Shown: one piece after another, positions 18,374 through 60,615 of the stretch
Position numbering within the stretch: the stretch's first letter is position 1
How the letters are laid out: every line of letters starts with the position of its first letter
Assembly (NCBI GenBank): GCA_021799085.1
Contig: JAJZBD010000005.1
Location: 4,498 to 68,497 of the forward strand
From: Nanobdellota archaeon
Lineage (GTDB): Archaea > Nanobdellota > Nanobdellia > Parvarchaeales > Parvarchaeaceae
DNA length: 64,000 nucleotides
Direction: 5' to 3'
The notes under the pieces: model-generated
Told to the model about the DNA's origin: nothing
Database searches by the model: none
Seen by the model: the letters and a program-made list of their open reading frames with translations, nothing else
Made by a program: the position numbers and the translations under genes

Positions 18374-19048
18374 ATGGCTGAAAAAAACAAAATAATAACC
18401 GCTTTTCAAACCGCAGGTTACATATCAATATTAGCAGCGAGGTTCCTTGAAGAAAAGGGGATTGTGAAAGATGTTAGTGGAATAGATATTGATGAACTTG
18501 CGCAATTTGCTGTAGTCAAAGACGGAAACCTTCTCTCCCCAATAAGGATACTGGAAGGAAAAGACTTTACAATGATAACATCACAAATACCTCTACCACT
18601 AAAAGCAATAAACGAGCTAGCAGACAAAATAATGCAGATTTACAAAGAAAGAAAAGCTGACCAGATAATAGCATTGGACGGACTTGCGATTGATGAAGCA
18701 AAAGACAAGAGCGATGTTTATTTTGCAAGCACTTACAATGAAAAAGAGATAAAAAATTGCAAAAGATTACCTGAAGGAGCAATGATGGGCTTTAATTCCT
18801 ACTTCGCCCACAAGGCAAGAAAGAGTAAGATACCCTTTATAGTTTTAATGGCGGAAACACATGCAGAGATACCCGATGGCATAGCAGCCGCAGCTCTCAT
18901 TTCCGTATTGGAAGGTGTTCTTGGCATACAGGTAGACACTTCTGAACTTATATCAGAATACAAGAAAACGCTTGGACAGATAAACAACCTATTGAAAAGA
19001 GTAAGTCAAGCGCCAAAAAGTCAGGAAGAACAGAATATGTACGTTTAA
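18374..19048 (+). CDS. PAC2-family proteasome assembly chaperone-like protein (PbaA/PbaB-like)
   Basis: 224 aa; N-terminal ITAFQTAGYISILAARFL resembles the PAC2 fold start; C-terminus ...NMYV ends in a hydrophobic-Tyr-X (HbYX-like) tripeptide. Confidence 0.4.
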   Translation: MAEKNKIITAFQTAGYISILAARFLEEKGIVKDVSGIDIDELAQFAVVKDGNLLSPIRILEGKDFTMITSQIPLPLKAINELADKIMQIYKERKADQIIALDGLAIDEAKDKSDVYFASTYNEKEIKNCKRLPEGAMMGFNSYFAHKARKSKIPFIVLMAETHAEIPDGIAAAALISVLEGVLGIQVDTSELISEYKKTLGQINNLLKRVSQAPKSQEEQNMYV

Positions 19049-58857: not shown

Positions 58858-58956
58858 TGGCCTGGCCGAGATTTGGACTCGGGACCCCTGCTTTTCCTAA
58901 AATGTTGGAGCATACTCATATAAGAGCAGTGCTCTACCGGGCTAAGCTACCAGGCC
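58858..58956 (-). tRNA. tRNA-Ile, anticodon read as UAU, with ~25-nt intron (approx 58894..58918)
   Basis: Acceptor GGCCTGG/CCAGGCC, T-arm CCGAG-TCCAAAT-CTCGG. Anticodon stem CTGCT...AGCAG separated by 32 nt; every splice choice I tried gives TAT at 34-36. Confidence 0.6.
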
Positions 58957-59481: not shown

Positions 59482-60312
59482 TTACATGTAGCCGAAAAGC
59501 CTGAGTTTTTCCATTACTCCTTCCTTGTCCTGTGATCTGCCTGCTCTTTCTTTTGTATGCTCTAAGTCCTGTTCCCATGCAGGCAAATCGCTTGTCTTCT
59601 TTGAATCCAATTTACCATCTATTGACCTATATCCGAGCTTGTACAAAGGATGCATTGGCAATTTGTACTTGAAAATATATCCCCAAACGTTCCTTTCAGT
59701 AAAAGGCAGTATCGGCTGTACCCTTACATGATCCGGATGCGTTCTCGGGCTTATGAAAACCTCCATAGACCTTGCTTCATTTTCATCCCACCTAACACCA
59801 GTAAATAGCGCATCGAACCTGTACTTTTCGATTGCCATGTTCATCGCAACTGTTTTCAATAAATGGTTTCCGACCTCTGTTTCTAAGCTGTAATCAAACT
59901 CTTCTCCGTTGAATCCTATTCTTCTAGCTTCATCCTGGTTAACCTTGTTAAGACTGCTGAGCTTTATTTTGTTGTCCTTCCCTACATTTTTTATAACGTC
60001 CTCATTCTTTGCATATACCATCTTAAAGCCCCATTCATTGCTTATGTCTTCAAGCATCTTCATGGTTTCATCGTAATGCTGTCCGTGGTCTATAAATAAT
60101 GCAGGAGGCAACTGCATCCCCAAATCCTTACATGCCCGTCTTACAAGGTCCAAAACCACTGTGCTGTCTTTTCCAGCACTCCAAACAACCGTAGGCCGGT
60201 TGTATCTTTTCAATGCATCCTTTATTACTATAAGCGCAATTTCTTCCTTTGCTTCTAAACTCAACCCACCTTCTATTCTTTGTTTTTTTACAGAATATTG
60301 TTCATTTTCCAT
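59482..60312 (-). CDS. PAPS-reductase-family PP-loop protein (Cys-less variant)
   Basis: VVWSAGKDSTVVLDLV PP-loop; ...HPLYKLGYRSIDG corresponds to the PAPS-reductase PLxxWxxxDVWxYI/GYxSIGC region but lacks the Cys; ends ...MEKLRLFGYM. Confidence 0.55.
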   Translation of the reverse strand: MENEQYSVKKQRIEGGLSLEAKEEIALIVIKDALKRYNRPTVVWSAGKDSTVVLDLVRRACKDLGMQLPPALFIDHGQHYDETMKMLEDISNEWGFKMVYAKNEDVIKNVGKDNKIKLSSLNKVNQDEARRIGFNGEEFDYSLETEVGNHLLKTVAMNMAIEKYRFDALFTGVRWDENEARSMEVFISPRTHPDHVRVQPILPFTERNVWGYIFKYKLPMHPLYKLGYRSIDGKLDSKKTSDLPAWEQDLEHTKERAGRSQDKEGVMEKLRLFGYM

Positions 60313-60321
60313 GTTTACCTC

Positions 60322-60543
60322 CTACATATAACCCAGTTTCCTGAGCTTATCCTCAAGATCAAGCACCCGCTCGTCTTTTTCTTCCCTTCTCTTTTTTTCT
60401 TCGTTGCTTTCCGAGACCAGCTCTCTAAGCAGGTATTCTACAAAGCTTGAAAGCGATGTGAAACCCGTTTTCTCTATAAGCTTTTTGGCCTTATCAGCCA
60501 AAGGCTTAGGTATCGAAACCGTTGTAAATTTTTGTTCATCCAT
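60322..60543 (-). CDS. ribbon-helix-helix (CopG/Arc-like) DNA-binding protein
   Basis: 73 aa; TTVSIPKPLADKAKKLIEKTGFTSLSSFVEYLLRELV = beta-strand + two helices; ends ...LEDKLRKLGYM. Confidence 0.55.
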   Translation of the reverse strand: MDEQKFTTVSIPKPLADKAKKLIEKTGFTSLSSFVEYLLRELVSESNEEKKRREEKDERVLDLEDKLRKLGYM

Positions 60544-60546
60544 AAT

Positions 60547-60574
60547 TACTAATAATTATATATAATTATTAGTA
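60547..60574. promoter_or_regulatory. 28-bp perfect palindrome TACTAATAATTATATATAATTATTAGTA immediately upstream of the RHH gene start; candidate operator overlapping TATA box
   Basis: Read directly from sequence; reverse complement identical; centre TATATATA 4-30 nt upstream of the RHH ATG (60543). Confidence 0.45.
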
Positions 60575-60615
60575 TAAATACTTTTCCTTTTAAAAAATAG
60601 CGAAATAAAAAATGA

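Follow-up and report, generated by a model that had tools for sequence, protein, structure and literature searches.

A C-terminal tail shared by a ribbon-helix-helix protein and a CysD-like enzyme at the head of an archaeal sulfate-activation operon

Introduction

Repressors of the MetJ type, which are small proteins of the ribbon-helix-helix (RHH) class, form arrays on repeats, and S-adenosylmethionine acts on MetJ as a co-repressor-type ligand. Among enzymes, a mobile C-terminal lid is typical of the superfamily of 3′-phosphoadenosine 5′-phosphosulfate (PAPS) reductases. Short C-terminal peptides can also be common to otherwise different proteins of sulfur metabolism: in the cysteine synthase complex, the tail of CysE docks in the active site of CysK via its terminal Ile carboxylate, and other proteins mimic this tail. 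Here we describe a pair of adjacent genes in a 64-kb stretch of DNA from a Nanobdellota archaeon (contig JAJZBD010000005.1 of assembly GCA_021799085.1, positions 4,498 to 68,497; hereafter, the window), one encoding an RHH protein and the other a CysD-like enzyme, whose products end in closely similar tails.

Two further systems are relevant to the way in which such tails might be read. The first is CdbA, an RHH protein that binds cyclic di-GMP (c-di-GMP) and whose C-terminal tail makes the dimer-dimer contacts of a tetramer (PMC7156744). The second is the HbYX motif, in which a protein ends in a hydrophobic (Hb) residue, a tyrosine and one more residue of any kind, and K66 of the alpha subunit of the 20S proteasome binds the terminal carboxylate; a “partial HbYX” tail, having the Tyr without the Hb residue, occurs in Rpt1 (PMC12352868). 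The likeness of the two tails in the window was first pointed out in a reading of the DNA letters (the original prediction), and the present analysis follows it up.

Results

The RHH protein ends in ...VLDLEDKLRKLGYM, that is, in ...LEDKLRKLGYM directly before the stop codon, and the enzyme ends in ...QDKEGVMEKLRLFGYM, with the closing residues ...GVMEKLRLFGYM. The open reading frames (ORFs) and their near-identical tails are thus exactly as originally described, and these two are the only carriers of the motif among the 620 stop-to-stop ORFs of at least 40 amino acids in the window. The tail is also kept in orthologues from several archaeal phyla: 59 of 61 RHH homologues end in [ED][KR]L[RK].LGY[MLI] plus zero to one residue, and the enzyme homologues (120/120) end in E[KR]LR..GYM. 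A comparison of the two family alignments by hhalign returned a single match, which is confined to the final 22 columns of the alignments (E 1.3e-5, probability 81%), and hidden Markov models (HMMs) of the tails alone gave reciprocal best non-self matches between the two families among 3856 ORFs from 87 sources. The background of L..[LFM]GY[LIMVF] is low (~4e-5 per residue in 749 unrelated ORFs, and ~1.6e-4 per protein for C-terminal occurrence), and a C-terminal motif was seen among the surveyed ORFs only in RHH proteins, CysD-type enzymes and the adenosine 5′-phosphosulfate (APS) kinases of the same operons. Conservation, hhalign, tail HMMs and background therefore agree in making a chance origin of the shared tail unlikely, as had been proposed. 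Pairs of tails from the same genome were slightly more alike than shuffled pairs (129 vs 123 +/- 3, p 0.046, phylogeny uncorrected), a marginal difference upon which we do not rely.

The smaller protein is of the RHH (Arc/MetJ/CopG) DNA-binding type. Its Pfam matches, to CcdA and RHH_1, are weak (17.1 for RHH_1, at a cut-off of 20.5), and a relative, P0182, lies above the RHH_1 cut-off at 27.5; the homologues carry database names of the RHH/Arc/MetJ type. The domain is built from an FTTVSIPK strand, a helix at residues 13-24, a T-G-F-T-S turn and a helix from residue 31. Its closest folds are the RHH antitoxins ParD and PrpA, and all of the top neighbours are RHH proteins, at E-values >1 for this small domain. 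In the AlphaFold2 (AF2) model, the C-terminal helix reaches residue 70, with the tail at low or medium confidence.

Searched with a profile of the RHH family, 1.84 billion representatives yielded 1469 family members (as cluster representatives) at E<=1e-3, and 312 at E<=1e-10, with L..LGY[LIM] kept in nearly all complete ones. The tail follows a variable charged linker and consists of an S/T N-cap, an acidic start and V/I..[KR]L[RK].LGY[ILM]. Residues L67, L70, G71 and Y72 are invariant in the family alignment and R68 is nearly so; the residue after the first Leu is mostly R/K, and H, Q, E, M and T occur there as well. The tail is thus a module found throughout the RHH family. It does not need a free C-terminus, because P0182, a protein of three RHH modules, has an internal tail directly before another RHH module, and P0210 is a single RHH protein with two tandem tails. 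Since internal and tandem tails exist, the terminal carboxylate is also not at a fixed distance. We observed, in addition, a group of proteins of ~210 amino acids (P0185, P0236, P0241, P0249 and P0278), in which an RHH domain is followed by an uncharacterised middle domain of ~100 amino acids and then by an RHH domain with a tail.

The enzyme has a PP-loop ATP-pyrophosphatase fold of the PAPS_reduct type (PF01507 at 7.4e-32), with an SAGKDS loop. Its best NCBIfam matches are CysD models, each below the cut-off (NF003587, 111.5 bits vs 195; TIGR02039, 83.9 vs 396.6). With the AF2 model of the enzyme as query, Foldseek retrieved 1zun_A, 4bwv and 2oq2 at E 1e-12 to 1e-13, and the closest solved relatives are CysD (1ZUN), PAPS/APS reductases and FAD (flavin adenine dinucleotide) synthase. 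The CysD-like enzyme is a presumptive ATP sulfurylase. No EF-Tu/CysN-like ORF that might encode a CysN partner was found in the window or in loci of the same, Parvarchaeum, type; a CysN-like GTPase adjoins related CysD-like genes in other loci (L025, L028, L055, L061, L069, L072, L082 and L084).

The core of the enzyme model has a predicted local distance difference test (pLDDT) score >90 and residues 251-276 score 57-64, with a helix at 263-272. Within this segment, E264, M267, L270, R271, G274, Y275 and M276 are invariant in 46 relatives. The C-terminus of Pseudomonas CysD (1zun_A) aligns with that of the enzyme (...TKERAGRSQDKEGVMEKLRLFGYM), and the two share an ER.GR motif and an ME..+..GY[FM] end; canonical archaeal CysD ends in ...TAMEDRKKEGYF, of the type ...EDRKKEGYF. 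By these alignments, the tail of the enzyme corresponds to the C-terminal segment that is ancestral among CysD-type PP-loop enzymes. Its role in CysD is not readable from 1ZUN, because 204 of the 325 CysD residues are modelled there, and nothing is said of it in the literature covered, which did not include the paper on the CysD-CysN crystal structure. The AF2 models of both window proteins are of monomers and cannot reveal contacts made by the tails.

To place the tails in their genomic context, the RHH alignment was scanned against one genome per species, and the resulting 80 loci, which span DPANN, Thermoplasmatota, Thermoproteota and other groups, were annotated with Pfam plus HMMs built for this analysis. 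In every locus long enough to tell, the gene for a tail-bearing RHH protein heads a sulfate-activation or sulfation operon, and the two window genes, too, open an archaeal operon for sulfate activation. The layouts are RHH-CysD-like (the Parvarchaeum type, which includes the window); RHH-CysD-like-CysN-like GTPase; RHH-CysD-CysN-DHH phosphoesterase-APS kinase-sulfotransferase-sulfate symporter; RHH-Sat-DHH-APS kinase-sulfotransferase (~35 Thermoplasmatota loci); and RHH-Sat-phosphodiesterase-APS kinase (Thermoproteota/Bathyarchaeia, sometimes with a second RHH copy). The genes downstream of RHH in the surveyed loci are CysD-like, Sat, CysC and related, and no toxin family was found there.

Importantly, either tail occurs without the other. 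All of the surveyed RHH ORFs (92/92) keep the tail, including those that precede Sat, an enzyme whose fold is unrelated to that of CysD and which is without such a tail. The same holds for a haloarchaeal-type RHH clade from hypersaline metagenomes (L092-L171), in which ...QL.DLGYL[ED] is found in 80/80 loci; the neighbours of these 80 genes vary, and Sat, CysD, CysN and CysC were not found within 5 kb of them. Conversely, orphan CysD-like relatives in Thermoplasmata and Nitrososphaerota end in GYM with no RHH gene nearby; these close relatives of the window enzyme lie, together with a sulfatase-family gene, inside glycosyltransferase clusters. The two families therefore keep their tails independently, and this argues against a tag that serves this gene pair.

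In four loci (L001, L087, L088 and L089), a gene for a close relative of the window enzyme is paired, within a glycosyltransferase cluster, with a gene of the sulfatase/alkaline-phosphatase superfamily, and neither CysN nor APS kinase is present. Such a setting would fit an enzyme that serves to modify glycans better than one of classical sulfate assimilation, although it is no more than a hint.

Between the TATA box and the start codon of the RHH gene lies an array of TAATTA hexamers (Table 1). In the 64 kb, TAATTA-N4-TAATTA has two overlapping matches, both of them here, where 0.04 would be expected, and 60 of 89 loci, spread over several phyla, have the same motif immediately before the RHH start. 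The TTTATA further upstream, at the corresponding position of which related loci have AAAGTATTTATA, is a putative promoter element. From this layout, the RHH protein is likely to be an autorepressor of its operon, and it may bind the hexamers as an array of dimers. One other locus (L026, 324-349) has a second trio of phased TAATTA hexamers right before a gene of the Na_H_Exchanger family, which suggests that the regulon of the RHH protein may reach past its own operon.

At the DNA level, the codons used for identical tail residues are the same in 71 of 178 cases (40%), in keeping with the original argument that selection acts on the protein and not on the DNA. The accompanying idea of a 3′ module shared by recombination has direct support in a single lineage. 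In L061 (2516-3316) and L072 (6211-7011), a 20-nt patch in the tail of the CysD-like gene matches the RHH tail, which lies 0.8 kb upstream, letter for letter. Between L055 (459-1268) and L061, the CysD-like genes are 90.4% identical overall, and the densest cluster of differences in the gene is the tail, with nine in 21 nt. All nine are synonymous, including a TCA/AGC serine switch, and the L061 version is the sequence of the RHH tail. These patterns indicate that, in the L061/L072 lineage, the 3′ ends of the two genes have undergone micro gene conversion. A general gene conversion between the tails was considered and rejected, given the codon identity of 40% and the fact that the L061/L072 lineage alone shows exchange. 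The CysD-like gene of L055 has also lost the stop codon after GYM, and its product ends in GYMIIF.

We also asked how generic the motif is. Many APS kinases of the surveyed operons end in ...KLKELGYLEA or ...YLDENGYL, and the enzymes of Arabidopsis and Penicillium end in ...NKGYLQA and ...TKGYLPA, respectively (PDB 3UIE and 1M7G). The RHH tail weakly matches the PG_binding_2 helix. Aligned with the RHH family by hhalign, the C-terminal third of APS kinase, from the lid (KGLYKKA..G.I..FTG) to the last helix (..LGYL), gave a match of 57 columns (E 0.003, probability 11%) that is probably spurious; with the CysD-like family, hhalign chose an internal helix-G-Y element that lies after the P-loop helix of APS kinase. 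A helix with a Gly cap and a Tyr followed by an aliphatic residue is a common structural unit.

The original prediction had gone on to suggest a common docking tag of the HbYX type. Where HbYX calls for a hydrophobic residue, both proteins have Gly, as do all of the homologues listed. The Tyr is penultimate in the two window proteins, and lies at -3, with two residues after GY, in 59 of 113 tail-bearing RHH relatives. The enzyme-type tail is already present in the CysD of Pseudomonas, a bacterium that is not known to have a 20S proteasome. The parallel that had been drawn with a PAC2-family protein of the window (8.8e-24) is correct insofar as this protein ends in ...NMYV, a genuine Hb-Y-X terminus, but GYM is not HbYX and the link to the tails was rejected.

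The RHH and CysD-like genes are on the same strand and are separated by 9 nt. The operon probably has a third gene, an ORF of 157 amino acids next to the enzyme gene. Neither Pfam nor NCBIfam gave a match to this ORF, and its homologues are confined to Parvarchaeum-type loci, where they occupy the same position each time; related lineages have a sulfatase-family gene in its place. Its end, ...KEYI, was tried as a third tail and rejected, as the ending varies among the ORF's own homologues. Two other features lie close by. One is a tRNA of 99 nt (Rfam RF00005, 53 bits), which is probably an intron-containing archaeal tRNA; ARAGORN calls none. The other is an ORF of 45 amino acids with two CxxC pairs (MAKFERRMYKAVCSDCGKETEVPFQPQEGRPVYCRDCYNKRKGTQ), which looks like a zinc ribbon.

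Table 1. Features of the locus and of the surrounding window
Feature	Position	Strand	Description
RHH regulator gene, 73 aa	60322..60543	-	First gene of the operon; ORF call
RHH tail, VLDLEDKLRKLGYM	60325..60366	-	Amphipathic helix, Gly C-cap, Tyr-Met anchor, charged E/K/R linker
CysD-like PP-loop enzyme gene, 276 aa	59482..60312	-	PAPS_reduct domain; ORF call, PF01507
Mobile C-terminal segment of the enzyme, residues 251-276	59485..59562	-	ERAGRSQDKEG, then tail helix VMEKLRLFGYM
Putative operator, three TAATTA hexamers	60543..60568	.	TAATTA-tata-TAATTA-ttag-TAATTA, 10-bp phase; the A of the RHH ATG falls within the final hexamer
TTTATA, TATA-box-like	60573..60578	-	~30 nt upstream of the RHH start codon; sequence reading
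AGGAGGT, Shine-Dalgarno-like	60317..60323	-	For the enzyme gene; overlaps the RHH stop codon; sequence reading
Lineage-specific ORF, 157 aa	59007..59480	-	Start codon 1 nt past the enzyme stop
tRNA	58858-58956	-	
ORF, 45 aa	58202-58339	-	
PAC2-family protein	18374-19048	+	

Discussion

We favor, with modest confidence, the view that the tail is a docking or cooperativity helix in the repressor and a mobile lid in the enzyme, and that it represents the same structural solution in both proteins, rather than a tag for a common partner. By analogy with the CdbA tetramer, which its tails hold together, and with the arrays of MetJ-type repressors, the repressor tail would act as a tethered docking helix that links neighbouring dimers on the 10-bp-phased hexamers, so that the operon would be repressed cooperatively. 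The tail of the enzyme would form a mobile C-terminal lid or clamp. The likeness of the two would then reflect the shared structural solution, possibly with an ancient capture of a 3′ end, and not the recognition of both by one partner. Several considerations weigh against this view. Three unrelated folds of one pathway share the C-terminal motif, and 0 of ~700 other ORFs have it; such a restriction to one pathway exceeds what a generic motif comfortably predicts. The tail of the archaeal CysD-like enzyme (..LR.LGYM) is also nearer to the RHH tail than is that of canonical CysD (..KK+.GYF). Furthermore, a 73-residue repressor of a metabolic operon needs an effector input, and the model names none. 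Finally, 1ZUN is the sole crystal structure of CysD, and leaves a third of the chain unmodelled.

A rival reading is mimicry of a tail or a common pathway partner, which we consider unlikely. Under this proposal, the RHH tail competes with the tail of a CysD-type enzyme or an APS kinase for one docking site, be it on the enzyme core, the CysN-like GTPase or another protein of the pathway, so that the amount or state of the sulfate-activating machinery sets the level of repression. Comparable cases would be a type II antitoxin, which holds the toxin encoded downstream by its C-terminal helix, and the binding of CysK by mimics of the CysE tail. The two genes are adjacent and likely to be translationally coupled, and their similarity is reciprocal-best and restricted to the tail, which is mobile in both AF2 models. 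The RHH protein has, moreover, the build of an antitoxin (RHH domain, linker and short helix), in line with its closest folds, and the C-terminal motif is limited to the three protein types that such competition would involve. The slightly greater likeness of tails from the same genome would fit as well, but this covariation signal is marginal. The survey of loci speaks against the proposal: the RHH tail is equally conserved in front of Sat, and in the 80 haloarchaeal-type loci that have no sulfate-activation gene nearby. No candidate partner is common to all operon types, with CysN, CysC and the alkaline-phosphatase-superfamily gene being absent from the window and from Parvarchaeum-type loci, and distant members have Q, E, A, H, N or T in place of the Arg of L-R-x-L.

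A broader version treats L-x-x-L-G-Y-h as a recognition module specific to sulfate activation and common to the repressor of the operon, the CysD-type sulfurylase and many APS kinases. The repressor would mimic the enzyme tails, repression would report how far the sulfate-activating machinery is assembled or loaded with ligand (APS/PAPS), and occasional gene conversion would keep the tails alike. We regard this as rather improbable.

At the other extreme, the likeness may be a pure coincidence, with two unrelated families each ending in a common helix-cap motif and connected only as regulator and target. The generic character of the motif (PG_binding helices, the ends of APS kinases and the element after the APS-kinase P-loop helix) and the occurrence of the tail in either family without the other are as this would have it. 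It is an improbable account, however, in view of the hhalign E-value, the reciprocal best matches among the 3856 ORFs, the low C-terminal background, and the exchange of DNA between the tails that is demonstrable in one lineage.

Still more doubtful, in our opinion, is a ligand-sensing lid, in which the helix, with its conserved basic residue and Tyr, helps to form a site that accepts sulfate, APS or PAPS. It would close the active site of the enzyme after ER.GR, and in the repressor would contribute to a co-repressor or inducer site at the dimer-dimer interface. The enzyme tail, mobile according to AF2, directly follows the ER.GR motif common to PAPS reductases; APS is handled by CysD as well as by APS kinase, and each of these has a GY[LFM] end; and the repressor is without another candidate sensor domain. 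That a small RHH protein can bind a nucleotide is exemplified by CdbA with c-di-GMP (PMC7156744). On the other hand, the basic residue varies across the wider RHH family, the haloarchaeal-type clade is unlinked to sulfate genes, and ~15 residues are too few to form a pocket alone.

It is scarcely credible that an HbYX-type or other C-terminal tag docks the two proteins on the 20S proteasome, on an AAA unfoldase or on an assembly factor: the penultimate Tyr of the window proteins, the partial HbYX tail known from Rpt1 (PMC12352868) and the true M-Y-V end of the PAC2-family protein encoded in the window are outweighed by the Gly at the Hb position in every member, the shifted Tyr of many RHH relatives, the internal and tandem tails and the bacterial CysD with the same tail, so that sequence data have already largely refuted it.

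Full-text searches of the literature turned up neither an RHH nor a CopG regulator for the activation of sulfate in archaea, and no account of the present RHH family or its putative operator; we regard the RHH protein as a probable autorepressor with a putative effector tail. A widespread archaeal RHH family, together with a putative operator that spans phyla, provides a testable entry point into the regulation of archaeal sulfur metabolism. The conserved ...GY[FM] end of CysD-type enzymes emerges as an unexplained mobile element, and micro gene conversion is documented between the 3′ ends of unrelated neighbouring genes. If tail mimicry were true, it would constitute a new coupling of enzyme state to transcription; the pathway-specific module, if true, would amount to an enzyme-coupled circuit like “conditional cooperativity”, in archaeal metabolism.

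How, then, does the locus compare with systems already described? With the HbYX activators (PAN, PbaB and PA200), it shares the penultimate Tyr of the two window proteins, and differs in the Gly at the Hb position, the variable position of the Tyr, the internal copies and the presence of the tail on bacterial CysD. Within sulfur metabolism, the docking of CysE on CysK is the closest parallel in concept, as there, too, unrelated proteins have a short C-terminal peptide in common; it depends on the terminal Ile carboxylate, and the terminus of the tail described here is not fixed. The CysD of CysDN (1ZUN) resembles the window enzyme in its PAPS_reduct/PP-loop fold, SxGxDS loop, ER.GR motif and ...ME..[KR]..GY[FM] end. 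In contrast to CysD, the window enzyme falls below the NCBIfam cut-offs, is without CysN, and has a ..LR.[LF]GYM rather than a ..KK+.GYF tail, and its close relatives adjoin a sulfatase-family gene in glycosyltransferase clusters. APS kinase (CysC), in the same operons as well as in plants and fungi, ends like the window proteins in a helix followed by [KE].GYL; its profile has a weak likeness to that of the RHH protein (E 0.003) and none to the CysD-like tail. The last helix of APS kinase presumably belongs to the kinase fold.

The RHH protein has its own relatives in function and build. Type II antitoxins (ParD, CcdA and RelB) have the same N-terminal RHH domain, flexible linker and short C-terminal helix, and likewise head an operon that is autoregulated, as we presume for the one described here. 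They differ in what follows, since the genes downstream of the window-type RHH are metabolic enzymes of two unrelated folds, and the tail stays constant whichever of them is present. MetJ, Arc and CopG, like the window protein, are small RHH proteins facing two to four phased short repeats at their own promoters, and the proposed likeness to CdbA is a tail-mediated contact between dimers (PMC7156744), with the cooperativity in the present case being one that we infer. What sets the window protein apart from MetJ, Arc, CopG and CdbA is its putative TAATTA-N4-TAATTA operator, a presumed regulon of sulfate activation and a tail of unrelated sequence.

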